From Chrysochromulina tobinii (Eukaryota): a stretch of DNA of 55,737 nucleotides. The notes beneath the pieces are model-generated. The model had not been told where the DNA came from. It did not search any database and saw nothing but the letters and a program-made list of their open reading frames with translations. The DNA lies in contig JWZX01003112.1 of assembly GCA_001275005.1 (NCBI GenBank), positions 1 to 55,737 of the forward strand, given 5' to 3'. Below are positions 10,501-51,316 of the stretch, piece by piece. The position numbers were made by a program, and so were the translations under genes. Each line of letters opens with the position of its first letter. Positions within the stretch are counted from its first letter, which is position 1.

Positions 10501-11613
10501 GCTGCCCATGCTGGCCAGCTCCGTCTGATCGTCTCCCCATCCCGTCTCCACAGCCGTCTCGAGGTCCGCAGCAAAGGGCATCGCGCCCATGTCGCGCTCG
10601 CCAGCGCCGTCCTCCTCATCGTCGTCCGCGGCGGCGAGCGCAGCGCGATCCGCGAGCTTCGAGTCCACTTGATCAGTCCACTCGGCCTCGGGCAACAAAC
10701 GCACCGCCACGATGTCTCCGTCAATGGCGCGATTCAGCGCCTCGTCGCCGCGTAGCAAGATCGAAGTATGCCCCTTCAAGCTGCTCACGAAGACGGCACC
10801 CTGGCGCGAGTTGTGGCGCGAAATGTTGAGCTTGCCTTGATGAAGCTCGCCCGCCGTGAGCCCCGCCTGCAGCTGCGAGAGCGGCAGGTGCGCCACGTAC
10901 CGCACCGCACCCTTTTCCCTTTTCCCGCCGCCGCCGCCGCCGCCGCCGCCACTCTCCTCTCTCGAGCCCCCACCTCCTCCTCCGCCGCCGCCGCCGCCAT
11001 CGGCGGGCGCACTCGCGAGCACATCCATGAGCTCAGCCGCGTCGGCGCGCGCGCGCACGTGCTCATGGATGCTCTCGCACTTTAGCCCAGCGTCCCGCGC
11101 GAGCCGCCGGTTCTCTGCGTCGTTCGTCAGTAAGAGCACCTCGACTCCCGCCTCCTCCCCTAGCTGGGACTGGTACCATTGCGTGGCGACGCGGATGGCG
11201 CGGTCGTTGCGGTCATTGGGCGACTCGCCCGGCCGCCGCGCCACGAACGTCTCGCGGTGGAACTCGTTGCAGAAGACGTGGAAGCGACGCTGCTCGTCGG
11301 CGATGATCGAGCGCAGCCGCTTGTACACCGAGAGCTTGTTGTGACGCACCTCGTCGAGGACGGTCTGCAGCACGATCACGTCCGTAAGCGCCGGCCTCTC
11401 GAGCAGATCGATCTGGTGCAGCACCACGTTCGTGTCGAGCACATAGTAGCGCTCCGCGCCCTCGGAGAGCTTGGGCTCTAAGTCGGGTCCGTCGAGCTGT
11501 GGCGCGCCGGTGGGCAAGTCGTCGCGCAAATACGTCTGGCGCACGTGCGTCTTGACCGCGCCGCGCCGCGTGCGCTTGAGGAAGACCCGGTTCGCTGCGG
11601 AGGCGTGCTCCAT
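7529..11613 (-). CDS. DIS3: Exosome exo/endoribonuclease DIS3/RRP44
   Basis: PIN domain ([27 protein letters not shown]) and RNB domain ([44 protein letters not shown]). About 8 introns. Stop after IEPVLPRA. Confidence 0.95.
8148..8299 (-). mobile_element. Tandem pair of 76-nt introner-like units forming one DIS3 intron
   Basis: Two units, 8224-8299 and 8148-8223, each running GTACGC...CCCCACAG, interrupt the PIRR|YAD motif. Confidence 0.75.
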
Positions 11614-11864
11614 GGAGCGCGCACGGCGTGAGCGTCTGGCCACGAGTCCGCAAGCGCCGGGCTCGTGTTTCGGCGCGTCCACGTCGTCGAAGAGCGGAAC
11701 AGTTTCGGGGCGCTGTGCTGGTTTGTTACAGTCCAAACTTTGAGTCTGTCGGCCTGCGGAAAAGAAGTTTCACGTTAACGTTGAATGTACATATCGCCAC
11801 TAAAAATTTATAAAAACTCCAGCAATTGAACTCCAGGCCACTAAGTCCCACTACCTTTCTCTTT

Positions 11865-12656
11865 TCAAAGCTCGACCGAGTGTTCCCCTCCTTCTCCGTG
11901 CATTTGCTGGACGCCGCCTCCGCGCACCGTGGCGCGCGTGATGGTGATGCGCTGCTTCGGCATCACGAAGATGCCTTCCTTGCGCGTCTCGACCTGTTCG
12001 AGGGCGGCCAACACCTCGTCGCCCTCCATCACCTTGCCAAACACGGTGTACTCATTGTCCAGGTGCGCCGCCCGCCCGAGCAGCATCGAGAACGAGGAGC
12101 CGCCGCTGTTGGGATCCTCTGTGCGCCCCATCGAGAGGATGCCGCGCACATGCCGGATCGATGTGAATTCCGCAGGCACGGTCTTCATCGCCTCGGTCGA
12201 GCACTCTTGCGAGAGCGTCTTGGTGACTGCTCCGGCATAGATCGACTGAATTTGCGCCACGAAGCCCTTGTCGACCCGAAAGATGTGGTCGGTGTCATAG
12301 CATCCCAGCCGGAAGAGCTTGGAGATGTGCGCCACCGTCACTGGAGCGGCATTGGGAAAGAATGCGAGCACGACCTTCCCGAAGCCTTCGATTTCGAGAG
12401 TAATGCGCTCATCGCCCAATTCCAGCAGCTTTGGGTCGACCGGCTTTGGGCACGAGTTGCACGCCACCGGGCAGCCCGTGTGCATGAACCCAGGGTTTTT
12501 GGAACACTCGCCAGACGTCGCCCAGTTTTTGCAGTTGTCATGCTCGTCAACGCAAGCCTCGTCGCACGCGGCGGTTGTGAGCACGGCGAAGAGGAGAGCG
12601 TACGCAAGACGTTGCGTGGGAGCCCGACGACCGACGACGGGAAAGCGGTCGCGCAT
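11865..12656 (-). CDS. Cyclophilin-type peptidyl-prolyl isomerase with signal/TM segment and ShK domain
   Basis: ShK motif CVDEHDNCKNWATSGECSKNPGFMHTGCPVAC. Cyclophilin motifs IFRVDKGFVAQ, LSMGR..PNSGGSSF and HLDNEYTVFGKV. Confidence 0.92.
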   Translation of the reverse strand: MRDRFPVVGRRAPTQRLAYALLFAVLTTAACDEACVDEHDNCKNWATSGECSKNPGFMHTGCPVACNSCPKPVDPKLLELGDERITLEIEGFGKVVLAFFPNAAPVTVAHISKLFRLGCYDTDHIFRVDKGFVAQIQSIYAGAVTKTLSQECSTEAMKTVPAEFTSIRHVRGILSMGRTEDPNSGGSSFSMLLGRAAHLDNEYTVFGKVMEGDEVLAALEQVETRKEGIFVMPKQRITITRATVRGGGVQQMHGEGGEHSVEL

Positions 12657-12849
12657 GTGGCTGCCTCTTTCGCCGACGGTCGGAGTCCGACTGACTCGCC
12701 ACGACTTGTGGAAGCCTCCAAACTTCTTGCGATGTGAATGCTGAAGCGGGAACAAGGCCAAGACGAGCTGTTTATGGTCTGAAGTCCGGAAAAAATTTCG
12801 CATCAAATTAGGCATTTAGACAATGGAGCAACTGTGCGTAATCACGTGA

Positions 12850-14091: not shown

Positions 14092-14245
14092 TCATACCAT
14101 TCTCGAGTGACGAGACAAAAGACAAAAGTAAAATGCAGCAAATTCAAAAGGTGCTCATGAACTTTCGCCGAGACGACGCGTGCAAGTTTGTCTCGTGGGG
14201 AGCCCACGTGTGTCGTGATAATGGTCGACGTGAACAGCGGACGCA

Positions 14246-15373
14246 ATGGATGCCACGGAGCGGTGGCGGTCGAGATGCGAGGCTTCCGGTCTCGGCTACC
14301 TGCTGCAGCTGCGCTCACGCCAGTCGCACGAGTTGCCGGCCGCGCTCTTCGACGGCCTCAGCCTTTCTTCGGCTGGGATTGGCCATGAATCATGCGACAG
14401 AGGTGCAGGCAAGGCCATTGATGATTACATCCAGATGGCAAAGGCACTCTCCGACGATGTATTCGCTCCCCTCGCACGTACACGCTGTTCTGGTTGCGGC
14501 CGCTCGCAGCGATGGTACTGCAGCCGCTGTGAGATGTGGATGGACAATGTGCCTGAAGCCCATCGCCAACCGCTCGTGCTCCCCTTCCAAGTGACGGTGA
14601 TTGTCCGTGACGCGATCGAGGACTCGACCGGTATACATGCCGCAGCCCTGGCTACTCCGGTCGTCGTCCGTCACTTCCCGCACGGCCTTCGAAATGACGT
14701 GGCCACGACAGGTAGCGACGAGCCTTGGATCCGATTCGACGCGTCCTCGGTCGTGCTGTACCCGTCCCCAGGCAGCATGACGGTCGCGGAGCTCGTGGAG
14801 GAGCTGTGCCACACGGCCGAGGCCTCGAGGGTTGCTGGGGCTGCCGAAGCCGCCGAGAGTGAGCGAGAGATGCTGAGCCAGCCTCGACCAACGCCTCTGT
14901 GCACGATCATCGTGGTCGATAGCAAATGGCATAACGATGGTGCGGTCCTAGAGCATCCGTCCATCCGCGGTCTTCGTCGCGTTCGGCTGGAGTACCCGCC
15001 GGACACGTCGCGTATCTGGCGCAGCCACGCAAGGGCGACCGCTGGCTGCCTGAGTACGATCGAGGCCCTCTACTGCTTCGCCCGAGAGTTCAGTAGCTGC
15101 TCACGACGGCGCCAAACGGATCTTCCAAATTTGGGACTTCCGGCACCTCCCAATTCGGATACGAGCCTCTCCTGCTGCGGATACGAGCCTCTCCTGCTCC
15201 TCTTTGCGCTCATACACCATCGAATCGCCTCGCAGACGCGGGCGGGCGATCAAGCTCCGTTCGAGCCCGCTCGGAAGGCCGCTGCCTTGGCGCACCGCAA
15301 GCTCTCTGCGGCGAAGGGTTCGCGCGCCGCTCCCATGGCTGCGCAGGCTGAGGTGGCGCAGCCGGCCGTATAG
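14246..15373 (+). CDS. DTW-domain tRNA-uridine aminocarboxypropyltransferase (DTWD1-like)
   Basis: RCSGCGRSQRWYCSRC zinc motif, STGIHA, VVLYPS, VVDSKW and CLSTIEALY. Confidence 0.85.
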   Translation: MDATERWRSRCEASGLGYLLQLRSRQSHELPAALFDGLSLSSAGIGHESCDRGAGKAIDDYIQMAKALSDDVFAPLARTRCSGCGRSQRWYCSRCEMWMDNVPEAHRQPLVLPFQVTVIVRDAIEDSTGIHAAALATPVVVRHFPHGLRNDVATTGSDEPWIRFDASSVVLYPSPGSMTVAELVEELCHTAEASRVAGAAEAAESEREMLSQPRPTPLCTIIVVDSKWHNDGAVLEHPSIRGLRRVRLEYPPDTSRIWRSHARATAGCLSTIEALYCFAREFSSCSRRRQTDLPNLGLPAPPNSDTSLSCCGYEPLLLLFALIHHRIASQTRAGDQAPFEPARKAAALAHRKLSAAKGSRAAPMAAQAEVAQPAV

Positions 15374-24964: not shown

Positions 24965-27397
24965 TTAAGCCCTGAGATTCGAATCGGAGTGCTCGAGCCT
25001 TGCGACGAGCGCGGGCGCGTGCTGAGCGAGCGTCGCCGCATTCAGCTTGCCAAGAGTCGCGACCGCAGCCTTACGCACACTCGACACGGAGTCCTCGAGC
25101 CTTGCGACGAGGGCGGGCGCGTACTGAGCGAGCGTCGCCGCATCCAGCTGGCCAAGAGTCGAGACCACCGCACAACGCACACCCGAATCGGAGTCCTCGA
25201 GCCTTGCGACGAGCGCGGGCGCGTGCTGAGCGAGCGTCGCCGCATCCAGCTGGCCAAGAGTCGAGACCGCCGCCTCACGCACACTCCAATAGGTGTGCAC
25301 GAGCCTTGCAACGAGCGCGGGCGCGTGCTGAGCGAGCGTCGCCACATCCAGCTGGCCAAGAGTCGAGACCGCCGCCTCACGCACATCCCAATCGGAGTCC
25401 TCGAGCCTTGCGACGAGCGCGGGCGCGTGCGGAGCGAGCGTCGCCGCATCCAGCTTGCCAAGAGTCGAGACCGCCGCACAACGCACATGCCAATCGGAGT
25501 CCTTGAGCCTTGCGACGAGCACGGTCGCGTGCTGAGCGAGCGTCGCCGCATCCAGCTGGCCAAGAGTCGAGACCGCCGCACAACGCACACTCCACACGGA
25601 GTCCTCGAGCCTTGCGAGGATCGCGGGCGCGTGCTGAGCGAGCGTCGCCGCATCCAGCTGGCCAAGAGTCGAGACCGCCGCACAACGCACATCCGAATCC
25701 GAGTCCTCGAGCCTTGCGACGAGCGCGGGCGCGTGCGGAGCGAGCGTCGCCGCATTCAGCTTGCCAAGAGTCGAGACCGCCGCCTTACGCACACCCGACT
25801 CGGAGTGCTCGAGCCTTGCGAGGATCGCGGGCGCGTGCTGAGCGAGCGTCGCCGCATCCAGCTTGCCTAGAAGCGAGACCACCGCACAACGCACACCCCA
25901 ATCGGAGTGCTCGAGCCTTGCGACGAGCGCGGGCGCGTGCGGAGCGAGCGTCGCCGCATCCAGCTTGCCAAGAGTCGAGACCGCCGCCGTACGCACATCC
26001 GAATCAGAGTGCTCGAGCCTTGCGAGAATCGCGGGAGCGTGCCAATCGGAGTCCTCGAGCATTGCGAGAATCGCGGGCGCGTGCTGAGCGAGCGTCGCCG
26101 CATCCAGCTTGCCAAGAGTCGAGACCGCCGCCTTACGCACACTCCACACGGAGTCCTCGAGCCTTGCGAGGAGCGCGGGCGCGTGCTGAGCGAGCGTCGC
26201 CGCATTCAGCTTGCCAAGAGTCGAGACCGCAGCCTTACGCACGTCCGTCTCGGAGTGCTCGAGCCTTGCGAGGATCGCGGGCGCGTGCTGAGCGAGCGTC
26301 GCCACATCCAGCTGGCCAAGAGTCGAGACCGCCGCCGTACGCACATCAGAATCGGAGTCCTCGAGCCTTGCGAGGAGCGCGGGCGCGTGCTGAGCGAGCG
26401 TCGCCGCATCCAGCTGGCCAAGAGTCGAGACCGCCGCACAACGCACATCCGAATCCGAGTCCTCGAGCCTTGCGAGGATCGCGGGCGCGTGCTGAGCGAG
26501 CGTCGCCGCATTCAGCTTGCCAAGTGTCAAGACCGCCGCCTTACGCACACCCGACTCGGAGTGCTCGAGCCTTGCGACGAGCGCGGGCGCGTGCGGAGCG
26601 AGCGTCGCCGCATCCAGCTGGCCAAGAGTCGAGACCGCCGCCTCACGCACATCCGTCTCGGAGTCCTCGAGCCTTGCGACGAGCGCGGGCGCGTGCTGAG
26701 CGAGCGTCGCCGCATCCAGCTTGCCAAGAGTCGAGACCGCCGCCTTACGCACACTCCACACGGAGTCCTCGAGCCTTGCGAGGATCGCGGGCGCGTGCTG
26801 AGCGAGCGTCGCCGCATTCAGCTTGCCAAGTGTCGAGACCGCCGCCTCACGCACATCCCAATCGGAGTCCTCGAGCCTTGCGACGAGCGCGGGCGCGTGC
26901 GGAGCGAGCGTCGCCGCATCAAGCTGGCCAAGAGTCGAGACCGCCTCCCTACGCACACTCCAATCGGAGTGCTCGAGCCTTGCGAGCGCCTCGACAACCT
27001 CCGGTGTGAATGCGGCCATCGTATATTCAAGCGCCGTCGCCGCCGCTTTTCGCTCCTCGCCAGCGGCGACGGCCTCCTCGGCTTTTTCTCCGGCTGGTTG
27101 CAAGTGCATGAACAACGAGAGCCACTCGGAGACTCCTTGCCGCGGATAGAACCGCAGCCGCTCGTTCAACTGTTTGTTCTCACCCCTTAATCTCTCGACC
27201 TCGTCCCTGAGCCGTTCGACATCCTTGCGCAGCTTCTCGAGTTCTTCTGAACAGTCTGCGCTGTTCGCGGCAACCGTTGGTGGCGCCGCGCTGGGGCTGT
27301 CACCGGCGGCGCAAGTCTCCGAACCGAGCGCCGAGTCCTGCTCCAGCAGGGTCAAGCCCTTGACACTGCTCGACAACGCGCGGAAGCTATGCTGCAT
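24965..27397 (-). CDS. Coiled-coil plus 34-aa HEAT-like tandem-repeat protein (copy A, no HET domain)
   Basis: Intronless 810-aa ORF with 19 full repeats of consensus EDSDSDVRxAAVSTLGxLDAATLAQHAPAILARL, plus one internally deleted unit and one terminal partial unit. Confidence 0.88.
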   Translation of the reverse strand: MQHSFRALSSSVKGLTLLEQDSALGSETCAAGDSPSAAPPTVAANSADCSEELEKLRKDVERLRDEVERLRGENKQLNERLRFYPRQGVSEWLSLFMHLQPAGEKAEEAVAAGEERKAAATALEYTMAAFTPEVVEALARLEHSDWSVRREAVSTLGQLDAATLAPHAPALVARLEDSDWDVREAAVSTLGKLNAATLAQHAPAILARLEDSVWSVRKAAVSTLGKLDAATLAQHAPALVARLEDSETDVREAAVSTLGQLDAATLAPHAPALVARLEHSESGVRKAAVLTLGKLNAATLAQHAPAILARLEDSDSDVRCAAVSTLGQLDAATLAQHAPALLARLEDSDSDVRTAAVSTLGQLDVATLAQHAPAILARLEHSETDVRKAAVSTLGKLNAATLAQHAPALLARLEDSVWSVRKAAVSTLGKLDAATLAQHAPAILAMLEDSDWHAPAILARLEHSDSDVRTAAVSTLGKLDAATLAPHAPALVARLEHSDWGVRCAVVSLLGKLDAATLAQHAPAILARLEHSESGVRKAAVSTLGKLNAATLAPHAPALVARLEDSDSDVRCAAVSTLGQLDAATLAQHAPAILARLEDSVWSVRCAAVSTLGQLDAATLAQHATVLVARLKDSDWHVRCAAVSTLGKLDAATLAPHAPALVARLEDSDWDVREAAVSTLGQLDVATLAQHAPALVARLVHTYWSVREAAVSTLGQLDAATLAQHAPALVARLEDSDSGVRCAVVSTLGQLDAATLAQYAPALVARLEDSVSSVRKAAVATLGKLNAATLAQHAPALVARLEHSDSNLRA

Positions 27398-27694: not shown

Positions 27695-28384
27695 TCAAAG
27701 AATCACACAGCTAGCCTGCCCTCCGTCCTCGCCGCGCTGTCGGATGGCATTCGAAGCGGCCAACTCGAGCACGCTCCTGGTCGGATCTACCATTGCGGGC
27801 AGAGTCGCCCCGGCGATCAGCAACTTCCGCACGACTTCTCCATGGCCTCGCTTCTGAGCGATGTCGATGGCGGAGACGGCGTTCGCCGTGACCGTCCTAG
27901 CGTCGACATCGGCGCCGGCGGAGATGAGCAGTGTGATGACATCCGCCTGCCCCCACGCGGCCGCGGCCATCAGGGGCGTAAAGCCCAAGAGCTTCGACGT
28001 GCCATTCGGATCCGCTCCGTTGAGGATGAGCTCCTTGGCCACCGACACGTGCCCTCGCTCAGCCGCGAGCATCAGTGCCGTCTTTTGACCAGAATCCATG
28101 GACGTGTCGGCAGGTACGCCCGAGGCCAAGAGTACACGTACCTTGGTCAGGTTGCCGCGGTCTATCTCCAACATGAGCTGCTCGCCGGTCATAGGCTGCT
28201 CAAACGAGGCCGGCTCTCCAGTGGCGGCGATGAGCCCTTGCTGCCTCGGAGCGACGACCTTAGTCCTGTATACAATGTCACCGTCGGATGTAGCGCTCAC
28301 CACCTCCCTGTTCAATGCGCGCACAGCCGAGATGCCACTGCCGCGCGGGCTGTGAGCGAGCGTCAGCATTGCCTGGACCCACAC
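27695..28384 (-). CDS. Ankyrin-repeat protein with C-terminal CaaX motif
   Basis: TALMLAAERGHVSVAKELILNGADPN and TPLMAAAAWGQADVITLLISAGADVD. Ends in CVIL. Start codon uncertain. Confidence 0.85.
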   Translation of the reverse strand: MWVQAMLTLAHSPRGSGISAVRALNREVVSATSDGDIVYRTKVVAPRQQGLIAATGEPASFEQPMTGEQLMLEIDRGNLTKVRVLLASGVPADTSMDSGQKTALMLAAERGHVSVAKELILNGADPNGTSKLLGFTPLMAAAAWGQADVITLLISAGADVDARTVTANAVSAIDIAQKRGHGEVVRKLLIAGATLPAMVDPTRSVLELAASNAIRQRGEDGGQASCVIL

Positions 28385-28825
28385 AAGGATTCAAGTCCAG
28401 TTTTTGCGGTGCACCCCAGGCAGGAAAGTTGGAAGAGGAGCTGTGTTTCGCATGCATGCTTGATAAACTCAGAGGCTGCGTGGTTTTGCTGGGCAATCGC
28501 GCGTTCAAAACGCATCGCGCGATGGCATCGGACCCCCGACCAAATCCGAAATCGAAGTGTGAGAGTATCGGCTGTCACAGGGAGGACCGGACTTCTTGCA
28601 TAATATTGTGATGTGAGTCTGTCCAATATTGCAGAGATAAGTCGTTAAGGACTTTTTGTTTACCGCAACAGTGTACGCCTACAACGAATGTACGTCAGAT
28701 GTACGTACTACTTACTTGTACTGCAGTAATACGCACTGCAATGTGCAAAGCGGCGGCGTGCCGTGTGCCATGCTTCTGCTCGGCTTCTCTGGCTGGCCTG
28801 CATGCTGGCCTGGCGCCTCCGGTTC

Positions 28826-31684
28826 TCATCCGACCGGCCGAGTGCTCACATAATGGTACTCGGCGAAGTGCCCCAGGTAGAGACGCGTGCGCAGCTCGAC
28901 TTTCCACACATCGGGCGGCTTGACCACGTGGCAGTAATCCTCGGAGAGTGACGAGATCACGCAGATCTCGGCCTTAAAGAGCACCTGCGGGGACGGAGGG
29001 CACCGTGGTGGGCACTTTATTTGCATGCAGAGGCGCAGTCGAGGGGCAATCAAGCCATACCGACATGGCGAGCAGGGTCGCCTCATCGATTGCATGCAGG
29101 GTCGGTATGGCTCTGCATGCAATCAAGCCATACCGACATGGCGAGCAGGGTCGCCTCATCGCCCCATGTGCGCCCATGCTGTTCCATCTCGGCGAGGTAC
29201 GCATGCCAATTGTCCACCCCCACAGAATCCTTGAGCATGAAGCGCTCGCCCACCTGATGGCATGCAATCGGGTGATGGCAATCGGGTGATGAATCACGCA
29301 ATCAGGTGACGGCAATCAGATGATGGATCACGCAATCAGCCCAAATCTGGCGCTGTGAGGCACGAGAGGCACTCGGGGGCTCTCGGGAGCAGCCCCATTA
29401 AGGTCATTAAGGTCATTAAGGTCATTAAGGTCATTAGGGCTTTCAGGAGCAGCCCTAGGCAACGTAAGGCAATCATCTTGCCATCGTCCATCGCTCGACT
29501 GCCATTCGTCAAATGCAATCACATGCAATCACATGCAATCATATGCAATCATATGCAATCATATGCAATCATATGCAATCACCTTGCCATCGTCCATCGC
29601 TCGACTGCCATTCGTCTTGAGCCATTGCACCGCCTTTTGACGAAGCTTGAGAGCATTGTAGCCGCCAAAGCCCACCTGCTCGAGCATCGCCATCCGAGGC
29701 AATCAGTGGCAATCACATGCAATCATACGCAATCAGGCTATCAGAGGCCATCACCTGCTCGAGCGGGCAATCAAATGCAATCATATGCAATCATATGCAA
29801 TCAGGCCATCACCTGCTCGAGCTGGTCGGCGATCGCGTGGAACTGGCAGTTGTTATCGCCGGGCACGTCCTTGATCTTGAAGCCGCGCACCCCAAGGTGG
29901 CGCGCGAGGCGAGAGCGTGGGTCCTGCGGCAGGTGCTTCTCGGCTTCCTTTTCGCGTGCCTTGTTAACGCGGTCGCGCAGCGCCTGATGAGGGGGGCAAT
30001 CAGAGGTCATCCAGACGCAATCAGAGGTCATCCAGACGCAATCAGAGGTCATCCGAGGCACTCCAAGGCACTTGCCACACACCGGAAACGGACTCAGAGG
30101 CACTCAGAGGCACTCAGAGGCACTCAGAGGCACTCAGAGGCACTCAGAGGCACTAAGAGGCACTCAGATGCAGTCAGAGGCACTCAGAGGCACTCAGAGG
30201 CACTCAGATGGCCTTCCCACCTGCAGCTCAGCCGACGGCTCCGACGCCACGATCCCACGCGTTGTGTTGGGCGCCATGATCCCACGCGTTGGCGGCTTCG
30301 CGCTTGGCGGCTTCGCGTGGTAAGGCCCCTCGCCACCAAGCGTGTCTGGCCTAATCGTGTCTTCCCAAATGTTCTTCGGCCTCTCCGACCTTGTCCCCGC
30401 CGCGGCGGCAGCGGCGGCGGCGGCGGCGGCGGCGCTGCCACCAATCTTTCCAGCGGGCATAGCGGCCATCGGGATGGCCACCTTGGGATACATGGTGTTC
30501 GCATACTCGTACGACGGCGGCGTTGGCGCCGGCCGCGTTGGCGTCGTTGGCGTCGGCTCGTCGGGTCGCCCACTACGGCGCTCGTCGGGTCGCCCACTAC
30601 GGCGCTCGTCGGGTCGCCCACTACGGCGCTCGTCGGGTCGCGCGAACGCCGACGGCCCTTCTGCGGCGCCGCCGCCCATGGGTGCGCTCACGACGGCGCT
30701 CAAGTCCGCAGCGTCGCCACCAGTGGGCACGTCGGGCGCCGTAGTGGGCATGGTTGGCGCCGTAGTGGGCACGTTTGGCGCCGTAGTGGGCAACATGGGC
30801 GCCGTAGTGGGCAGCTGATACGGGCCCGCCAGAGGCCGTGCGAGCGCCGTAGTGGGCAACGCGAGCTGCTGCTGCTCGACCTGCTTCTCGACGCCTTCGC
30901 ACCGAATCGTGTAGTACGGGGGCATGTCGTCGTTGTGAACCACCAAGACCTCAGCGGGGATCGGCGCACCCTGAGCCGGATGATAGAGGACCACGTCGCC
31001 CTTGGCGAACAGCACGGCGGGTGGCGGCGGGGCGCTCGGCGGCAGGGCGTAGGGAGTTCCGGGCATCGGCGACGGCGCTGAGACTCCCCGAGCAGGAGCC
31101 ATGCTCGAGGCGGCGTCCGTCGCATCGCCGCGCCCCAATACGAGCGGTACACCCGCTACGCCTGCCCCGGCGGCCGCTACGCCGGCCGCCGCCACGCCAG
31201 CCGCCGCGGCGGCGGCCGCAGGCTTGAGCTTGGGCTTGAGCTTGGGCTTGGGCTTGGGCCTAAAGCTGGCCCAGCGCTGCTCGAGCTGCGCAATCATGTC
31301 CATCCGAAACTGGTCGCCATCGGGCGCCGCCTCCGGCAGCGGCGCGGGCTCCGCCTCGTTGAGCATCCTCGTCAGCCGTGGTTTGAGCTCCTCGAGCGCG
31401 TCGACCACCGATAACAGGTCGCGCTGGAGTTTCAGGTGCGCCGTCGACTTTTTGTTGATGGAATTGGCCTTGCTGATCGTCTCGTAGAACTTTGCGAAGC
31501 GAAGCATGAACACAAAGGCCTCCTTTAGGCTGCCGAGTGTGTTCGCATTGTACTTTTGGAAGGCGACGACGCGCAGGTGCTCGGCCTGCTGGTAGAGGCG
31601 CTCGGGGTTTAAGAAGCTGGATTTGTCGCCGAGGGACCCGATCTTGTCGCCCTCGGCCACGAGCCGCTCCATCTCACGCCCCAT
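28826..31684 (-). CDS. OTU-family deubiquitinase with N-terminal helical (USP8/MIT-like) domain
   Basis: DVPGDNNCQFHAIADQL, WGDEATL and HFAEYHYVS catalytic motifs spread over several exons. N-terminal EAFVFMLRFAKFYETI and a Pro-rich linker. Confidence 0.85.
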
Positions 31685-32596: not shown

Positions 32597-35500
32597 CTGG
32601 AGCTGGTGCACGTGCTGGCTCTGGTCGTCCATATTAGGCACGCGCCTCTCATGTCTCACGCAAACGAGCGCACCTGGCCGCCGCGGCCGCCGCCGCCGCC
32701 GCCGCGGCCCCCTTTGGCTGCGGCGCCCTTGGCCGCGCCTTTGCCCTTTCCCTTTCCGCCTTTGCCCTTTCCGCCTTTGCCCTTGCCAGCACCTCCCTTG
32801 CCAGCCCCTCCCTTGGCGCCGGCCGCGCCGTCGACGGTGATGATGGCAATCGTGGACATGAGGGAGAAAGCGCTCATCGGGATGATCGAGAAGCTCACCC
32901 CTAGGCGGGCCGCGGGCCGCAAGCCGCTGCCGCTGCCCTCGAGGGGGGCGCTCTCAGCCCCCCGTGACGAAACCGCGCCCCGTGACGAAACCGCCTCCCG
33001 TGACGAAACCGCGCCCCGTGATGGTGTGGCCGCCACCGCCCCGTGTGTCTTCAGCTGCCCGCCGTGCCCAGATGGCACGCCCGCCTCCGCCGCCTCCGCC
33101 GCCTCCGCCGCCTCCACCTCCGCCAGCTCCACCAGCTCCGCCTCCGCCTCCCAGTCAAACACCTCCTCGACTGCGGCCACAGCCGCGGCGAGCCCTCGGA
33201 CCACGGCAGCGGCCGCAACGGCCTTAGCCCCCTTGCCCTTCTTGCCGACGAGCTGATGGCGAAGGTCATTAGCGCCCAAGCTCGCGCTCACGGCGCTCCC
33301 CTTGCCGCCCAACACGGCGCTCCCCTTGCCGCCCAACACGGCGCTCCGCCCCTTGGTGCGTCCTCCGCGCGCGTCCGGCTCGTCCTCCTCCTCGTCGTCG
33401 TCGTCGTCCTCGTGTTCGTCAAACGGTTGCTCGCCGTCCTCCTCCTCTTCGTCGTCGTCGCGTCGTCTTAAGCGCACTGCGAACGCAGGCTCGTCCTCGT
33501 CGTCCTCGTCGTCCTCCTCCTCCTCATCCGCTTCCACCTCCTGAGTGTGCTCGTCGTTGCGCGCGAATCCCTTGCCTTTCCCCTTGCCTGGCATCGACGA
33601 CCCCTTGGCACCGGCCGGGGCGTTGTGATGAGCACTTGCATGCATCGACGACCCCTTGGCACCGGCCGCGGCGTTGTGCGGGCGCTGTGCTGAGCTTCGC
33701 GGTGCCGACGGACGTGGCGCCGAAGGGCGCGGCGCCGACGGCGCGGGGGGCGCGGCGCTGTGCCGAGCACCTGGCGCCGTGTTGGGCTCCGGCGCGGGCT
33801 CAGGCACGGGCGCCGTGTTGGGCTCTGTCTCGGCGCTGATATCGTACACGGCGGACGAGAGGGTGAGCCGGATGACGCCCACGGCGGCGCGTAGCACCTG
33901 ATGAGGGAGGCAATCAGAGGTCATCAGGGTGAGGAGAGTCGGATGACGCCCACGGCGGCGCGTAGCACTTGGGAGCCATGATCGTGCCCTAATGAGGGAG
34001 GCAATCACATGCAATCACATGCAATCAATGCAATCACATGCAATCAGGCCATCACCTGGGAGCCATGATCGTGCCCTAATGAGGGAGGCAATCACATGCA
34101 ATCACATGCAATCACACGCAATCAGGCCATCACCTGGGAGCCATGATCGTGCCCTAATGAGGGAGGCAATCACATGCAATCACATGCAATCAGGCCATCA
34201 CTTGGGAGCCATGATCGTGCCCTAATGAGGGAGGCAATCACATGCAATCACATGCAATCAGGCCATCACCTGGGAGCCATGATCGTGCCCTAGGATCGCC
34301 TCGCCGTTCACAGCGACCAGGAGCTGCCCAGGCAAGATCTCGCCCGACTCGGCGGCGATGCAGCCTGGCACGACCGTCAAGATCGTCGGCGCGCTCTGGC
34401 TGTTCCCCTTGAGAGTGATCCCAAGTCGCGAGCTCGCCGTGGGCTTCTTCAGCTTGATGTTCACAGTGCCAGCCGCCCAGGGGTTGGCAGGTGGCGGCGC
34501 TGCCTCGGTGGCGGCGGCCGGCGCTGCCGCGGCGGTGCTGGCGGCGCCCGGCACGGCGCCCGCCATGAGTCCTTTGCCCACACCTTTGCCAACTCCCTTG
34601 CCCGCACCCTTGGCACCTTTCCCTGTCGACACCGACGCCTCGGCGGCGGCGCTCGTGACGGCGCTCGAGGCCGGCGCCTCCGACGAGGCGCCGTACCGGG
34701 CACTCTTGGGCCCTCCCTTGGGCACCGCGCCGTTCTGGGCGGCCGCTTCGACGGCCGTTGGCGCCGAGTGCAGCCCGAGGCCTTTCGCGCCTCTGACGAA
34801 ACCCTTGGCGCCCGCGACGGCGCCGACGGATGGCGCCGTACCGGGCACGGCGGCCGCCGCCCCGTCCACCGGCGGCAAGGTGCCATCCTCGACGCGCCGG
34901 CGCGCCTCGGTGAGCGCGAGCGTGTCGGCTTGCTTGAGCCACTCCTGCCACGTGGCAGAGGGTCATCAGCGGTCATCAGGGGCAATCAGCGGTCATCAGG
35001 GGCAATCAGCGGTCATCAGAGGCACTCAGCGCACCTGCCACGTGGCGGGCGCGCCGCCCGTCACGCCCTTGCCACCCCTGCCGCCCTTGCCCTTGCCAAG
35101 GAACGCACCGACCTTGCCCTCGGCGTCGAGCGCCGTCGCGGGCGCCTCGGCGAGCCGCCCACCCTTGCCTTTGGCGAACGCTTCGCCTTTGCCGAGGCGC
35201 GGCACGGGCGCACCGGCCTCGTCGCCGCCTTTGGCCGTCGCTGGGGCTGCAGCTCGCTCCGCGGCCGCACGAGCTGCAGCCGAGATCGAGATCGACATCT
35301 CGTCGGCGTCTCCGGCGAGCAGCTTCTCCTTTTCGAGCCGCAACCGCTCATTCTCCGCGCGGACGCGCCGAAGCTCTTCCCGCAGCTCCGCATTGGCAGA
35401 CATGCCGGAGGGCACATCCCCTCCTAGGTTCTCGAGCATTTGTTGCCGGGCGAAGGCCGCCGCGCCCTTGCCCTTGCCGCCGCGCGTACCGGCGCCAGCA

Positions 35501-43498: not shown

Positions 43499-43553
43499 GC
43501 GAGCACGTAATCTCAAACCCCGCGTTCACATTTTGGGACAGACGTGCACGATG

Positions 43554-43634
43554 TTCTAGGCCCAGGTACAGCTGTAGTCCATGCAGGTGGTCAGAAAACA
43601 CCCGAAGTTGAGGCTGGACCGCGACGAAACTGAC
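43554..43634 (+). promoter_or_regulatory. Conserved upstream block of HEAT-repeat gene B
   Basis: TTCTAGGCCCAGGTACAGCTGTAGTCCATGCAGGTGGTCAG...GCGACGAAACTG is shared with copy A. Confidence 0.55.
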
Positions 43635-43692
43635 TGTATGCTGAAACCTAGGATTCCTAACCCCAAAATGGCACGCAGAGGGGCCGAGGACA

Positions 43693-46600
43693 ATGCAGCA
43701 TAGCTTCCGAGCGTTGTCGAGCAGGATCAAGGGCTTGACCCTGCTGAAGCAGGACTCGGCGTGCAGTTCTACGACTTACGTCGCCGGTGACAGCCCCAGC
43801 GCGGCGTCACCAACGGTTGCCGCGAACAGCGCAGACAGTTCTGAAGAACTCGAGAAGCTGCGCAAGGATGTCGAACGGCTCAATTCAGACATCGAGCAAC
43901 TCCATGGAGACAAGGAGCAGCTCAATGCAGACAACGAGCGGCTGAAGGACGAGGTCGACAGATTACGGGGTGAGAACGAACAGTTGAACGAGCGGCTGCG
44001 GTTCGATCCGCGGCAAGCAGTCTCCGAGTGGCTCTCGAGGTGCATGCACTTGCAACCGGCTGGAGGAGTGGCCGCCGCCGCCGCCGAGGAGGCCGTCGCC
44101 GTGCGGGAGACCGCGGCGGACGGAGTGGCCGCCGCCGCCGAGGAGGCCGTCGCCGTGCGGGAGACTCTGGAGGAGTCCGCCGCTGGCGAGTGCACCTTTT
44201 GGTTTGTGTCCGCATCGCACATCCGCTCTCTGGATCTCACGACCACCATCACGCTGCCCTCCTTTCAAGAGCTCTTCAAGCTCAACAACGCCTCTGGGGG
44301 CAGCGTGCTGGAACAGCGCACGCTCAAGGCTGGCGTCGCCTACCGTCAGGGGTACGTGTCCGATCTGCTCGCGGTCAGCCACCGATGGGAGGACCCATCG
44401 GCACCCGACGGCGCGGGCGCCCAGCTGCGCGCGATCCGCGCGTACCTCGACGCCCATCCCGAGGTCGTTGGCGTCTGGTTCGACTTTTGGTGCATGCCGC
44501 AGGGCAAGCAGAGGACGCTCGCTGAGACGGTGCGCTTCAAGCACATGCTCGGCAACGTCAACTTGCTCTACCTCGGCTGCCAGGTGCTCGCACTCATCGA
44601 CATTTCGTACCTCTCCCGCTTCTGGACGCAGTTCGAGGCGTGGCTCTCGATGCAGGAGGGCTCGTCGGCGAAGGGCTTGCGCGCGGCGTCAGAGCGGCGG
44701 CGGCGCTTGCAGATGGTGTGCCTGCATAATGCGACGACCGGGTCGGAGGACGTCAAGCTGCAGCGAATGTGGTGCAACGTGACGCCGAAAATGGCGCTCG
44801 AGCTGCTTTCAAAGCCTGACGTGACGGTGACGAACACGGGCGACAAGGTGACGCAGCTCAAAAAGATTGAAATGCTCGATGGCGAGGTGCGTCAGGCCTG
44901 GGGTGTCGAGGCGGCGAGGGCGCTGCGTGCGGAAGCCGAAGAAGAAGGCGTCGCGCCGAATCTGCCCTATGGCTTCTCGAAGGAAGTGCTCCTCGGGGCG
45001 GGGTTTACGGGGGTGGAGCGGGCGGGGGTGATGGCGCGATTTGCAATCCGAGACAGGGACCTTGCTTCGGCAAAGGCATTTGGTGAGTTTTCGTTGCAGG
45101 AGCGAAAAGCGGCGTCGGCGGCGTTTGAGTTTCCGATGGCCGCATTGGCCCCGGAGGTTGTCGACGCGCTCGCAAAGTTCGAGGACTCCGATTCGGGTGT
45201 GCGTTTGGAGGCGGTCTCGACTCTTGGCCAGCTGGATGCGGCGTCGCTCGCTCCGCACGCGCCCGCGCTCGTCGCAATGCTCAAGGACTCAGTGTCGTAC
45301 GTGCGAAAGGCGGCGGTCTCGACTCTTGCTAAGCTGGATGCGGCGACGCTCGCTCAGCACGCGCCCGCGCTCGTCGCAAGGCTCGAGGACTCCGATTCGG
45401 ATGTGCGTATGGCGGCGGTCTCGACTCTTGGCCTGCTGGATGCGGCGACGCTCGCTCGGCACGCGCCCGCGATCGTCGCAAGGCTCGAGGACTCCGATTC
45501 GGGTGTGCGTTCGGCGGCGGTCTCGACTCTTGGCCTGCTGGATGCGGCGACGCTCGCTCAGCACGCGCCCGCGATCCTCGCAAGGCTCAAGCACTCCGAT
45601 TCGGATGTGCGTGAGGCGGCTGTCTCGACTCTTGGCCAGCTGGATGCGGCGACGCTCGCTCGGCACGCGCCCGCGATCCTCGCAAGGCTCGAGGACTCCG
45701 ATTCGGGTGTGCGTAAGGCGGCGGTCTCGACTCTTGGCCTGCTGGATGCGGCGACGCTCGCTCAGCACGTGCCCGCGATCCTCGCAAGGCTCGAGCACTC
45801 CGATTGGGGTGTGCGTGCGGCGGCGGTCTCGACTCTTGGCCTGCTGGATGCGGCGACGCTCGCTCAGCACGCGCCCGCGATCCTCGCAAGGCTCGAGGAC
45901 TCCGAGTATCCTGTGCGTATGGCGGCGGTCTCGACTCTTGGCAAGCTGGATGCGGCGACGCTCGCTCAGCACGCACCCGCGCTCGTCGCAAGGCTCGAGC
46001 ACTCCGATTGGGGTGTGCGTAGGGCGGCGGTCTCGACTCTTGGCCTGCTGGATGCGGCGACGCTCGCTCAGCACGCGCCCGCGATCGTCGCAAGGCTCAA
46101 GGACTCCGATTCGGGTGTGCGTAAGGCGGCGGTCTCGACTCTTGGCAAGCTGGATGCGGCGACGCTCGCTCGGCACGCGCCCGCGATCCTCGCAAGGCTC
46201 AAGCACTCCGATTCGGGTGTGCGTGAGGCGGCGGTCTCGACTCTTGGCCAGCTGGATGCGGCGACGCTCGCTCGGCACGCGCTCGCGATCCTCGCAATGC
46301 TCAAAAACTCCGATTCGGGTGTGCGTAAGGCGGCGGTCTCGACACTTGGCAAGCTGGATGCGGCGACGCTCGCTCAGCACGCGCCCGCGATTGTCGCAAG
46401 GCTCAAGCACTCCGATTCGGGTGTGCGTGAGGCGGCGGTCTCGACTCTTGGCAAGCTGGATGCGGCGACGCTCGCTCGGCACGCGCCCGCGATCGTCGCA
46501 AGGCTCAAGGACTCGGATTCGGGTGTGCGTGCGGCGGCGGTCTGGACTCTTGGCAAGCTGGATGCGGCGACGCTCGCTCAGCACGCGCTCGCGATCGTCG

Positions 46601-47943
46601 CAAGGCTCGAGGACTCCGATGTGTTTATGCGTGCGGCGGCGGTCTCGACTCTTGGCCAGCTGGATGCGGCGACGCTCGCTCAGCACGCGCCCGCGATCCT
46701 CGCAAGGCTCGAGGACTCCGGTTCGGATGAACATATGGCGGCGGTCTCTTCGTACGTGCGTGCGGCGGCGCTCCTGACTCTTGGCAAGCTGGATGCGGCG
46801 ACGCTCGCTCAGCACGCGCCCGCGATCCTCGCAAGGCTCAAGGACTCCGATTCGGGTGTGCGTATGGCGGCGGTCTCGACTCTTGGCAAGCTGGATGCGG
46901 CGACGCTCGCTCAGCACGCGCCCGCGATCGTCGCAAGGCTCAAGGACTCCGATTCGGGTGTGCGTAAGGCGGCGGTCTCGACTCTTGGCAAGCTGGATGC
47001 GGCGACGCTCGCTCAGCACGCGCCCGCGATTGTCGCAAGGCTCGAGGACTCCGATTCGGGTGTGCGTTCCGCGGCGGTCTCGACTCTTGGCCAGCTGGAT
47101 GCGGCGACGCTCGCTCGGCACGCGCCCGCGATCGTCGCAATGCTCAAGGACTCGGATTCGGGTGTGTGTGAGGCGGCGGTCTCGACTCTTGGCCAGCTGG
47201 ATGCGGCGACGCTCGCTCAGCACGCGCTCGCGATCGTCGCAAGGCTCGAGGACTCCGATTCGGGTGTGCGTAAGGCGGCGGTCTCGACTCTTGGCAAGCT
47301 GGATGCGGCGACGCTCGCTCGGCACGCGCCCGCGCTCGTCGCAATGCTCAAGGACTCCGATTCGGGTGTGCGTGCGGCGGCGGTCTCGACTCTTGGCCAG
47401 CTGGATGCGGCGACGCTCGCTCGGCACGCGCGCGCGATCGTCGCAATGCTCAAATACTGGGATTCGGGTGTGCGTGAGGCGGCGGTCTCGACTCTTGGCC
47501 AGCTGGATGCGGCGACGCTCGCTCAGCACGCGCCCGCGATCGTCGCAAGGCTCGAGGACTCAGTGTCGGGTGTGTGTAGGGCGGCGGTCTCGACTCTTGG
47601 CCAGCTGGATGAGGCGACGCTCGCTCAGCACGCGCCCTCGCTCGTCGCAAGGCTCGAGGACTCCGATTGGGGTGTGCGTACGATGGCGCTCCTGACTCTT
47701 GGCAAGCTGGATGCGGCGACGCTCGCTCAGCACGCGCCCGCGATCCTCGCAAGGCTCGAGGACTCGGATTCGGATGTGCGTGCGGCGGCGGTCTCGACTC
47801 TTGGCCAGCTGGATGCGGCGACGCTCGCTCAGCACGCGCCCGCGCTCGTCGCAAGGCTCGTGGACTCTGTGTCAGGTGTGAGTTTTCCGCCGACCTCTTG
47901 CCATTGCGATAGATGCCTGCGACGGCAACTACACCAACAGTGA
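43693..47943 (+). CDS. Coiled-coil + HET (heterokaryon incompatibility-like) domain + 34-aa HEAT-like repeat protein (copy B)
   Basis: Intronless 1416-aa ORF. HET-like motifs AVSHRWEDP..PD, VWFDFWCMPQ, NLLYLGCQVL and YLSRFWTQFE. 26 full repeats between ~45180 and ~47860. Confidence 0.88.
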   Translation: MQHSFRALSSRIKGLTLLKQDSACSSTTYVAGDSPSAASPTVAANSADSSEELEKLRKDVERLNSDIEQLHGDKEQLNADNERLKDEVDRLRGENEQLNERLRFDPRQAVSEWLSRCMHLQPAGGVAAAAAEEAVAVRETAADGVAAAAEEAVAVRETLEESAAGECTFWFVSASHIRSLDLTTTITLPSFQELFKLNNASGGSVLEQRTLKAGVAYRQGYVSDLLAVSHRWEDPSAPDGAGAQLRAIRAYLDAHPEVVGVWFDFWCMPQGKQRTLAETVRFKHMLGNVNLLYLGCQVLALIDISYLSRFWTQFEAWLSMQEGSSAKGLRAASERRRRLQMVCLHNATTGSEDVKLQRMWCNVTPKMALELLSKPDVTVTNTGDKVTQLKKIEMLDGEVRQAWGVEAARALRAEAEEEGVAPNLPYGFSKEVLLGAGFTGVERAGVMARFAIRDRDLASAKAFGEFSLQERKAASAAFEFPMAALAPEVVDALAKFEDSDSGVRLEAVSTLGQLDAASLAPHAPALVAMLKDSVSYVRKAAVSTLAKLDAATLAQHAPALVARLEDSDSDVRMAAVSTLGLLDAATLARHAPAIVARLEDSDSGVRSAAVSTLGLLDAATLAQHAPAILARLKHSDSDVREAAVSTLGQLDAATLARHAPAILARLEDSDSGVRKAAVSTLGLLDAATLAQHVPAILARLEHSDWGVRAAAVSTLGLLDAATLAQHAPAILARLEDSEYPVRMAAVSTLGKLDAATLAQHAPALVARLEHSDWGVRRAAVSTLGLLDAATLAQHAPAIVARLKDSDSGVRKAAVSTLGKLDAATLARHAPAILARLKHSDSGVREAAVSTLGQLDAATLARHALAILAMLKNSDSGVRKAAVSTLGKLDAATLAQHAPAIVARLKHSDSGVREAAVSTLGKLDAATLARHAPAIVARLKDSDSGVRAAAVWTLGKLDAATLAQHALAIVARLEDSDVFMRAAAVSTLGQLDAATLAQHAPAILARLEDSGSDEHMAAVSSYVRAAALLTLGKLDAATLAQHAPAILARLKDSDSGVRMAAVSTLGKLDAATLAQHAPAIVARLKDSDSGVRKAAVSTLGKLDAATLAQHAPAIVARLEDSDSGVRSAAVSTLGQLDAATLARHAPAIVAMLKDSDSGVCEAAVSTLGQLDAATLAQHALAIVARLEDSDSGVRKAAVSTLGKLDAATLARHAPALVAMLKDSDSGVRAAAVSTLGQLDAATLARHARAIVAMLKYWDSGVREAAVSTLGQLDAATLAQHAPAIVARLEDSVSGVCRAAVSTLGQLDEATLAQHAPSLVARLEDSDWGVRTMALLTLGKLDAATLAQHAPAILARLEDSDSDVRAAAVSTLGQLDAATLAQHAPALVARLVDSVSGVSFPPTSCHCDRCLRRQLHQQ

Positions 47944-48510: not shown

Positions 48511-50841
48511 TCAAGATCCAAGCTTGTGGAAGCCGCCCATACTCTCGGGCGGGCCTGCAAACTGCTGGGCTAGTAGCCGCGGCTCGAGGGCGTCCAGCCC
48601 AATCTCGGCACGCATCGCGAGCGAGAAGCGCGCGAGCGCGCCTCCGTAGCACACGGGCACGATGGATGGGTCCACGTCCGCGCACAGCAGCTGCGCCGCC
48701 TTGGGAGCATCGACGGTGCGGAAGATGTGTAAGGTGTCCGTGATCTCCTTGGAGAGCATCGGCTTGAAGATCGCGTAGACGGCGTGCACCGTCGAGGGCG
48801 CGTTGAGCAGCAGCGACTTGCGAAGGTACAGCGGGTAGTGCAAGTCCGCAACCGGCGCGGTGCGTGCGAAGCGCTTGTACACCTTCCACAGGAAGCCGAG
48901 TGTGAACCCGGCGCCGTCGGAGACCATGTAGACCGACTTGAGCGTCCGATCCCCTTCAAGACAGAGCCGGTCGCATTTGACGGCGCGGTACTCCATGAAC
49001 GCGAGATTGCACCTCCAAAATTCGTCATCCGTCGTCGCCTCGAGCAGCGAGCTCCCATCGAGCCGATTGAGACCAAGACGGCCAGGTACGCACACCTCAA
49101 ACGGGTCTCCCCGGCGCGTAGTCCCGAGGAACGGATGGCCCGGGATGAAGACGTTGACCCGAGCGACCGCATCGCCCCAGCCGCCGCTCAGCTGCAGCAG
49201 AGGCACGCCGGCGAGGAGCTCGGCGCGTACCTGGTTCAGGCCCCTGCCCTCGCCCGACAGTCGCCATTCGATGGTACGACGGACCTGTTGAAGGGTCGGT
49301 GCCTCCTCCCACTTGTTGCTCACGCAGAAGCGGCAGTAGGTCGCAGCGCTGTACGCATCGAGCGGTGCGCCCGCGGCGTATGCCGCCTCGAGCACCCTGA
49401 TTAGGAAGGCGCGCTCATCAGGCGAGAGCGTGTCTAGGAATGCATGCGTCAGCGGTGCTGTGAGTACTTCGGCAGGTGAGAGGTGCGGCGGCTGAATGAC
49501 TCGTGCTGATCGGTTCTGATGGACCTCTGATTGGTTCTGATGATGGACCTCTGGTTGCGTACCATGGGCCTCTGGCTGCGTATGATGGACCTCTGATTGC
49601 GTCTGATGACCTCCGATTGCGAAACCCACTGCAGGAGAGAGACGGCCTGGCTTGGGAGCCGCCTCCGAGTCTGATTGCCTCTGATGGACTACCTCCAAGT
49701 CTGACGGGCTCTGATGGACTGCCTCCAAGTCTGAGCGCAGCGAAAGTGGCTTGTGACCGGGAGGCATGCCGACGGGTGGAGGCATGCCGACGGGTGGAGG
49801 CATGCCGACGGGTGGAGGCATGCCGACGGGTGGAGGCATGCCGACGGGTGGACTGGCGAAGCGAGTTCGTTCCTTATTGAGACCTGGGCTCGAGGGCAGC
49901 TGTGAATGTGACTGTGAACCTGGGCTCGAGGGCAGCTGCCGTGCCTCTGCGGCAGGCATGAGCGTGGCTCGGGAGTGCGTTCGTTTCCTGCCCGCGTCGC
50001 CGTTGGCCGGCTCGGGGGAGCTCAGGGGAGCTCGGTCGAGATCGGGGGAGCTCAGTGGAGCTCGGGTGAGATCGGGGGAGCTCAGCATCGGTGTTTGCCG
50101 CGTGCCGAGCGCCGTGCTGAGCGCCGGTGGGGTGAGCTCGAGGGCAGCTCCGAGCGCCGACGCAACGGATTGTCGGTGATGACCTATGATGGTCTGCGAG
50201 GACCGAAGCTCGAGGGCAGAGACGCCGCCGAGCTCCGCCGAAGCGAGCTCGAGCTCAGGGCCCCTCGAGCTCGGAGATTCAATCTGGCCCATCGAGCGCT
50301 CCTCCGCCTTCGCTGCGAGCGCTCCGATTTGCGGGATGGATGCGAAGGCGCTCGGACTGCCGGTGGAGGCGTTGTGGTGGGCGCTCGGACTGCCGGTGGC
50401 CTCGTCGTTGGAGGAGGCGCTGTGGTGGGCGCAACACCCACCTCTGATTCCGTACATGCGCCGAGCATCGGCATCAGCATACGCGGTCTTGGCATAGCTC
50501 GCATCGATCTCGGCCGCATCGGTCTCGGCGGCGTCCTTATAGAGCGCCTTTTCGACGTTGTTCTCATGGGTGCTCATGTGCTCCTCGAGCTCCACGTGCG
50601 AAGCACGTCTCTCTAGAGCTTCGATGCGTCCCTCGAGCTCGAGGAGCATGCCTCGTACGTGGCGCACTTGCACACCGACCACTCGCAGGAGCAGCTCCTG
50701 CGCTTGTACGTGCATCTCCTGCGGCTTCGCGGAGACCACGCTCACCTCCTCCGCGGAGATCTCGATGATCACGGGCTCGTCCACTTCCCGTGCAGCCACT
50801 TGGCACGGAGTCTGTGCCAAGGGGACCTCCGCGCCGACCAT
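48511..50841 (-). CDS. CRAL-TRIO/Sec14-domain lipid-binding protein
   Basis: RFCVSNKW..TIEWR, HYPLYLRKSLLLNAP..YAIFKPMLSKEITD and IVPVCYGG. Low-complexity N-terminal half with PPVGMP repeats. Confidence 0.82.
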   Translation of the reverse strand: MVGAEVPLAQTPCQVAAREVDEPVIIEISAEEVSVVSAKPQEMHVQAQELLLRVVGVQVRHVRGMLLELEGRIEALERRASHVELEEHMSTHENNVEKALYKDAAETDAAEIDASYAKTAYADADARRMYGIRGGCCAHHSASSNDEATGSPSAHHNASTGSPSAFASIPQIGALAAKAEERSMGQIESPSSRGPELELASAELGGVSALELRSSQTIIGHHRQSVASALGAALELTPPALSTALGTRQTPMLSSPDLTRAPLSSPDLDRAPLSSPEPANGDAGRKRTHSRATLMPAAEARQLPSSPGSQSHSQLPSSPGLNKERTRFASPPVGMPPPVGMPPPVGMPPPVGMPPPVGMPPGHKPLSLRSDLEAVHQSPSDLEVVHQRQSDSEAAPKPGRLSPAVGFAIGGHQTQSEVHHTQPEAHGTQPEVHHQNQSEVHQNRSARVIQPPHLSPAEVLTAPLTHAFLDTLSPDERAFLIRVLEAAYAAGAPLDAYSAATYCRFCVSNKWEEAPTLQQVRRTIEWRLSGEGRGLNQVRAELLAGVPLLQLSGGWGDAVARVNVFIPGHPFLGTTRRGDPFEVCVPGRLGLNRLDGSSLLEATTDDEFWRCNLAFMEYRAVKCDRLCLEGDRTLKSVYMVSDGAGFTLGFLWKVYKRFARTAPVADLHYPLYLRKSLLLNAPSTVHAVYAIFKPMLSKEITDTLHIFRTVDAPKAAQLLCADVDPSIVPVCYGGALARFSLAMRAEIGLDALEPRLLAQQFAGPPESMGGFHKLGS

Positions 50842-51316
50842 CGCCAAAGAGAATGTTTAATGTGTGAATGTGAATGAGTGTCTGTGTGACAGCGGGGGGC
50901 GTAATTTGACTGTACACACGGAACACACGGCCGAACCTCACACCCGACCCGACCCAACAACGCACACGCAGGACCTTCGTAACGGTAATCTCTCAAATTG
51001 TTTGTGAACTGGCTGCCCGGGTGCCTGTGAACGTGTTGCAGCTGTTGCCCTACGTTCCTTCTCGCGTCACATGGGTGATAGCGTGGCCTCCACAGTCGGC
51101 ATGCACTCCTGTCCTCTCCCCTCGCCGCCGCTCGCACTCGGCCCCCTTTTGGGGCCCACGCACACACTCGATGCACACGTATGGAGCATGGCACGGCGCC
51201 GTAGTTCCACGACTCCTCCCGTGGGGCGCCTTGGTACCTCGTTACACTCAGATCCACGTGACACTCAGCACGAGGTGCATCGCCAGACTGGCCGGGTCGT
51301 GCGCGAGGGCCGTCGC

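Follow-up and report, generated by a model that had tools for sequence, protein, structure and literature searches.

The window analysed here is the whole of contig JWZX01003112.1 (assembly GCA_001275005.1) of the alga Chrysochromulina tobinii, 55,737 nucleotides (nt) in length. Our subject is gene A, a single open reading frame (ORF) from the ATG at 43693 to the stop at 47943, whose predicted protein joins a coiled coil and a HET/TIR-like domain to a long array of near-identical HEAT repeats. Paralogue B, a second gene 16 kb away, carries such an array but lacks the domain. The features are listed below (aa, amino acids; ART, ADP-ribosyltransferase).

43693..47943, forward strand: gene A ORF of 1416 aa, encoding a coiled coil, a HET/TIR-like domain, a linker and 26 HEAT repeats
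43547..43635, forward strand: stretch upstream of gene A common to A and paralogue B (94% over 89 nt, against 27581-27494)
43819..44016, forward strand: predicted coiled coil, aa ~43-108, with Pfam coiled-coil matches
44188..44901, forward strand: HET/TIR-like domain spanning aa 166-403, in which SHRW (229-232), D264 and RFWTQFE (309-315) are conserved
44623..44637, forward strand: W311-x-x-x-E315 motif, on the helix following the third core strand
44902..45186, forward strand: linker and N-cap; ART-HEAT relatives have a comparable N-cap ahead of their arrays
45187..47865, forward strand: 26 alphaRep-type HEAT repeats of 102 nt, with variation enriched at positions 3, 4, 7, 8, 11 and 15
46717..46743, forward strand: in-frame 27-nt insertion (9 aa) between repeats 15 and 16
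47866..47943, forward strand: unique tail, with a GTGAGT donor-like site at 47878
24965..27397, reverse strand: paralogue B, 810 aa; 19 full repeats and partial units, domain and linker absent in frame

An earlier note on this DNA had described a coiled coil, a HET-like domain and 26 repeats of 102 nt, and this layout was confirmed by the open 1416-aa ORF and by Pfam matches to coiled-coil families and HEAT_2. The heptad count of the coiled coil varies between relatives, and the true C-terminus of gene A is uncertain because of the donor-like site at 47878, which might putatively be spliced. The upstream stretch that A and B have in common is likely the promoter or 5' untranslated region of gene A. 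The statement in the earlier note that the protein has no NACHT or NB-ARC domain also held: no Walker A motif is present in the gene A protein, and no NACHT or NB-ARC match occurs among the Pfam families listed for the whole protein (25 of 36) or for its N-terminal 498 aa (25 of 27).

The array scored 309.5 bits against HEAT_2 (PF13646; cut-off 27.7), its structure model had a predicted local distance difference test (pLDDT) score of 85.5, and both its top fold matches and its best PDB sequence matches were alphaRep proteins. Pairwise identity among the 26 repeats averaged 90.5% in DNA (79-97%) and about 80% in protein with no identical pair, in agreement with their earlier description as almost identical in DNA. 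Array positions 3, 4, 7, 8, 11 and 15 align with alphaRep positions 18, 19, 22, 23, 26 and 30, which form the concave binding face of that scaffold (PMC3754942; sources are cited here from excerpts, apart from Dyrka 2014 and 10.1101/2023.05.19.541320). These six positions, a set taken from the list in that source when the per-position table of the array had already been seen, held 23 of the 50 minimal non-synonymous events in A (p 3.5e-6); in paralogue B they held 14 of 33. Variation clusters on the predicted binding face of the array, as expected from the earlier proposal of a HEAT-like scaffold with one variable face. All of the variable sites that the earlier note had listed (its repeat positions 1-2, 4-6, 9, 13 and 17, here 33-34, 2-4, 7, 11 and 15) did vary, but only position 7, with 8 residues in array A (2.7 bits), was truly hypervariable, position 11 was Ser in 23/26 repeats, and mostly conservative variation at positions 23, 26, 28, 29 and 31 had been omitted. 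Position 8 (alphaRep 23) barely varied. Across 83 distinct related repeats, 11 residues were found at position 7 and 11 at position 4.

The segment upstream of the array had been called a HET domain, a name that is too strong because 44185-44910 gave no Pfam match at E<=0.1 and, when compared with PF06985 (HET) itself, the domain fell below the gathering cut-off of 22.5 bits; "HET/TIR-like" fits the TIR-type best fold match and the conserved WxxxE motif. Among relatives of the domain, 5/46 matched PF06985 at 13.9-16.8 bits, covering only positions 1-85 of the profile, and 3/77 did so at E<=0.01 (best 0.00075). For membership we used the three blocks of HET domains, which correspond to strands A-C and helix C of TIR domains, and a length of about 220-240 aa; the domain is 238 aa long and has SHRW, WxD and RFWTQFE as candidate blocks in this order. 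The W311/E315 motif is conserved in 281/281 and 277/280 aligned rows (Glu in 277/280). A WxxxE motif on TIR helix C has been described (10.1101/2023.05.19.541320), and E315 is predicted to be the catalytic glutamate.

The structure model of the domain was confident and its top fold matches were TIR domains, with weak scores. Profiles compared against a single TIR_2 sequence gave a negative result (probability 0.1). PDB sequence searches with the domain returned nothing meaningful, and NCBIfam and PADLOC gave single-member chance matches only. Deoxyribosyltransferases tied with TIR domains within 1 Z unit among the fold matches, as they might if the domain were an N-glycosidase with a housekeeping role, of the nucleoside deoxyribosyltransferase type, and the array served as a constitutive scaffold. 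We regard this as extremely improbable, as hypervariable arrays, together with promiscuous fusions of the domain at either terminus to ROCO, GBP and repeat domains, are ill-suited to a housekeeping enzyme. Among viral proteins the best fold match was BFVD A0A2P0VP16, a TIR/WD40 protein that belongs to the algal virus Tetraselmis virus 1. Pattern scans, which are not sensitive, confirmed domain relatives in 0/70 candidates from viral contigs, in 0/3 from prokaryote genomes and in none from plasmids, and repeat relatives in 0/18 from viral contigs.

A profile search placed the domain in a large family, of 3863 clusters at E<=1e-3, 1902 at 1e-10 and 711 at 1e-30. Its fusion partners include ROCO, GBP, WD40, kelch, C-type lectin, LRR, ankyrin, ARM, SAM, decapeptide repeats and PARP; among 34 matches, and among the best 120 of 153, none of the relatives bore a tag for NACHT or NB-ARC. 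It is possible that the domain acts as a non-enzymatic TIR-type adaptor that assembles with other family members, behind an array that is a diversified sensor: the adaptor TIRs MyD88, MAL/TIRAP and TRIF appear among its fold matches, HET-HET recruitment was proposed by Dyrka 2014, and Chrysochromulina has many proteins of this family. We consider an adaptor role unlikely, since the S-H-R-W, D and WxxxE residues, near-invariant family-wide, resemble an active site, and since an ART-like domain bearing R-S-E motifs is found joined to a related array. Within the family, ROCO/COR GTPases carry the HET-like domain at the C-terminus (P0015, P0016, P0018, P0019, P0021, P0027, P0030 and P0328), and the GBP proteins P0004, P0006 and P0272 have two or more copies of it. 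Two tandem genes at L043:5582-11519, 3.3 kb apart, each contain the domain, and a long frame at L048:7569-16781 combines it with Mib_herc2, SH3_15 and a C-terminal TIR_2 domain.

Paralogue B shares with gene A the N-terminus, the coiled coil, the N-cap, the repeat type and the 89 nt of upstream DNA. Its junction corresponds to position 44190 of A joined to 45100, with 909 nt missing in frame and a 2-nt overlap. Other close relatives possess the domain, and on this sequence comparison the direction of change was likely a loss in B. The arrays of A and B are 89% alike, with identical tracts of up to 85 nt.

Arrays differ even among close relatives of gene A, one of which is a C. parva gene model (227/241 identical in the domain); other relatives carry the name C. 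tobinii. Five proteins that are 84-95% identical in the domain and linker share 0-33% identity at positions 3, 4 and 7 of the first three repeats, compared with 80-88% at the other 28 positions, and the tails of the relatives also differ. Members of one 90% cluster, whether alleles or paralogues, have 2 to 8 recognised repeats in differing combinations, as counted from fragmentary gene models in which assembly collapse may play a part. Two other assemblies (L001/L003) have 27 repeats in a different order, despite upstream flanks identical over 8500 nt, and for this reason it is uncertain how many repeats the array in the window has and how its middle is ordered. We rejected this difference of 26 and 27 repeats as proof of reshuffling, because those flanks are identical and one exchange point lies at a 125-nt exact repeat. 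Differences between arrays, which the earlier note had proposed to check among strains, were seen between close relatives, but reshuffling within this strain is unproven owing to this assembly ambiguity.

Related effectors and arrays also occur in other combinations. Of 66 repeat relatives, 8 bear ART-type Pfam tags, 2 NB-ARC and 6 NACHT. The R-S-E motifs are present in 8/8 of the ART-tagged proteins and a similar N-cap in 6/8; when two of them were scanned with Pfam at E<=1e-8, ART was not reported. The eight are P0206-P0208, P0216, P0219, P0223, P0229 and P0235. Their clusters contain C. tobinii and C. parva proteins, and the same positions vary in ART-HEAT relatives as in gene A. Separately, the HET-like domain is combined with ARM repeats in 27 of the best 120 of 153 proteins. 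In a Chrysochromulina family annotated as "vacuolar protein 8", it precedes near-identical, hypervariable ARM repeats, and in 22 such proteins 109 distinct windows varied at a handful of positions within a single stretch (up to 3.0 bits), in a frame otherwise near-invariant. Examples are P0090, P0269, P0288, P0304, P0310 and L069:8123-10090, some with a SAM-like N-terminus as judged by eye. WGR or PARP domains on the repeat or domain relatives P0212, P0289 and P0009 are a further NAD-linked theme.

We read gene A as a repeat-gated, TIR-type immune receptor without a nucleotide-binding oligomerization domain (NOD), in which ligand binding would lead to NAD+ cleavage, and give this reading a probability of roughly 0.6. 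Beyond the anatomy of gene A, we infer the following steps. The coiled coil would pre-dimerize the protein, and the ligand of the array would be a protein that is foreign or altered; binding might then cluster or release the domain, by analogy with the ARM repeats that gate the SARM1 TIR domain. Clustered domains would cleave NAD+, and NAD+ depletion or an ADP-ribose signal would bring about death or arrest. Unequal crossover or conversion would likely homogenize the arrays and reshuffle them, and paralogue B could be a sensor-only partner or damper. The setting would most plausibly be virus infection. Chrysochromulina is mixotrophic, and the same mechanism might instead be directed at a conspecific, prey or endosymbiont protein, in allorecognition or control of ingested bacteria. 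Fungal HET proteins do act in allorecognition, including the non-NOD-like-receptor (non-NLR) protein het-B (PMC10890737), but the majority of HET genes in fungi have no part in allorecognition, and we hold a non-viral target to be very unlikely.

The evidence for selection on the array is mixed. Variants present in at least three repeats were 17 non-synonymous (N) to 1 synonymous (S) and 15:0 (p 0.014 and 0.006), or 24:4 when pooled (p 0.047). A tree model gave ratios of non-synonymous to synonymous change (omega), inflated by recombination, of 2.8 overall, 5.2 at the six sites (p 7e-4) and 1.9 elsewhere. A pairwise pN/pS of 2.24 was set aside as inflated, and domain differences from RNA contigs (9 N:5 S, from 40/98 rows listed) were not used. 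Column parsimony gave an omega of 1.4-1.6 for the array (p 0.07-0.16), about 1 for the framework and 1.8-2.0 (not significant) at hypervariable positions, and 5/14 of the synonymous events under column parsimony fell in the same six codons. As to the enzyme step, in one screen only 4/29 glutamate-bearing TIR domains of unicellular eukaryotes were active (10.64898/2026.04.20.719644). On the per-codon dN/dS that the earlier note had proposed as a check, there was an excess of amino-acid-changing variants, but a ratio above 1 was not significant by the conservative count. These parsimony values and the concentration of synonymous events, along with the domain loss in B and the varying tails, would suit an unstable coding repeat drifting under relaxed selection, with clustering produced by a conversion or mutation hot spot or by structural tolerance. 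We find this quite unlikely, given that recurrent variants are nearly all non-synonymous, that the coding frame is open for 2.7 kb whereas the array's five other frames have 2-17 stops each, and that the same positions vary in the ART-HEAT relatives while the separate ARM family has a one-helix pattern.

The sensor-effector interpretation in the earlier note was partly supported overall, and the domain-less paralogue and the wider set of effectors and arrays had escaped it. Tentatively, and with rather less confidence than in the receptor reading, we suggest that haptophytes may have modular NOD-independent receptors, in which NAD-consuming effectors (HET/TIR-like and ART-like) are mounted on recombining alphaRep-type HEAT or ARM arrays as a natural repertoire of anti-virus binders, with effector-less paralogues as decoys or co-sensors.

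Gene A resembles the fungal HNWD NLRs (Podospora het-d and het-e, plus het-r), which join an N-terminal HET/TIR-like effector to high-identity repeats with 80-100% internal identity and few hypervariable positions (PMC13449251). Its array falls within this range (90.5% DNA and about 80% protein identity, with 8 residues at position 7). Unlike HNWD proteins, gene A has no NACHT domain, has HEAT rather than WD40 repeats and a domain below the PF06985 cut-off, and belongs to an alga and not a fungus. Repeats of high internal conservation mostly occur without an ATPase in absolute terms, yet are enriched with one (PMC13449251). Non-NLR HET proteins are known (PMC10890737, PMC10197012); in the Podospora het-B BH protein a HET domain likewise accompanies a C-terminal specificity domain (PMC10890737), which is one divergent lectin fold, whereas that of gene A is a recombinable tandem array. 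SARM1, an ARM-SAM-TIR NADase, is also a NOD-independent TIR protein gated by a helical solenoid (PMC9153377), and some members of the HET-like family carry SAM, but SARM1 is a conserved, low-copy metabolite sensor, while the solenoid of gene A is hypervariable and the domain order reversed. With alphaRep/HEAT_2 the array shares consensus, register and the equivalents of the varied positions, and differs in that its units are 34 aa rather than 31, natural and effector-fused, with little variation at position 8. The brown-algal ROCO-LRR candidate receptors are likewise algal arrays, with positively selected concave-face sites (PMC11378527), but they have a GTPase switch and exon shuffling, whereas the gene A array is one uninterrupted frame with no NTPase. 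TIR induction has been found in resistant Gephyrocapsa (PMC12489294), and other TIR-like NADases have been reported (10.64898/2026.09.21.753143).

In the literature covered, neither this architecture nor this family was found described for algae; most subscription journals and supplements lay outside that coverage, and domain tables there may list such proteins. The parts are known, and what is new here is the domain-less paralogue, the ART-like and NB-ARC fusions of the related repeat, and the sister family with hypervariable ARM arrays. Gene A offers a concrete candidate: its catalytic residue is predicted, its variable surface is defined, alleles exist in nature and the paralogue without the domain can serve as control. 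Diversification of the NLR kind may, on this evidence, be workable without the ATPase switch that fungal and plant NLR receptors have, and the HEAT face chosen by the engineers of alphaRep would be the one that varies in nature too. Its compact, confidently modelled domain may help to settle the biochemistry of HET domains, which PMC12881547 describes as undetermined.

Transcription, which the earlier note had put forward as a check, was found in a close relative. Contigs of polyA run X17 fell on 19/30 bins and on none of the flanking bins; they come from a relative whose domain is about 95-97% identical. Two mixed-culture RNA runs gave exact short matches at a depth of 2.5-4.4, where carry-over is possible because upstream DNA was matched as well. 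One X19 contig has the 63-nt gap and substitutions of paralogue B in a by-eye comparison.

Directly upstream of B, on the same strand, lies an ankyrin-repeat gene in a single ORF (27695-28390, reverse). Neighbors at 3834-4835, 7697-11769, 11865-12815, 14234-15373 and 48511-50856 comprise choline kinase, Rrp44/Dis3 pieces, ShK-cyclophilin, DTW and CRAL-TRIO genes, and no defence cluster is apparent among the neighbors in the window. Many microsatellite-like tandem repeats of 10-11 nt, likely intronic, also occur (e.g. 1497-1696, 2267-2507, 29692-30208 and 34001-34292).

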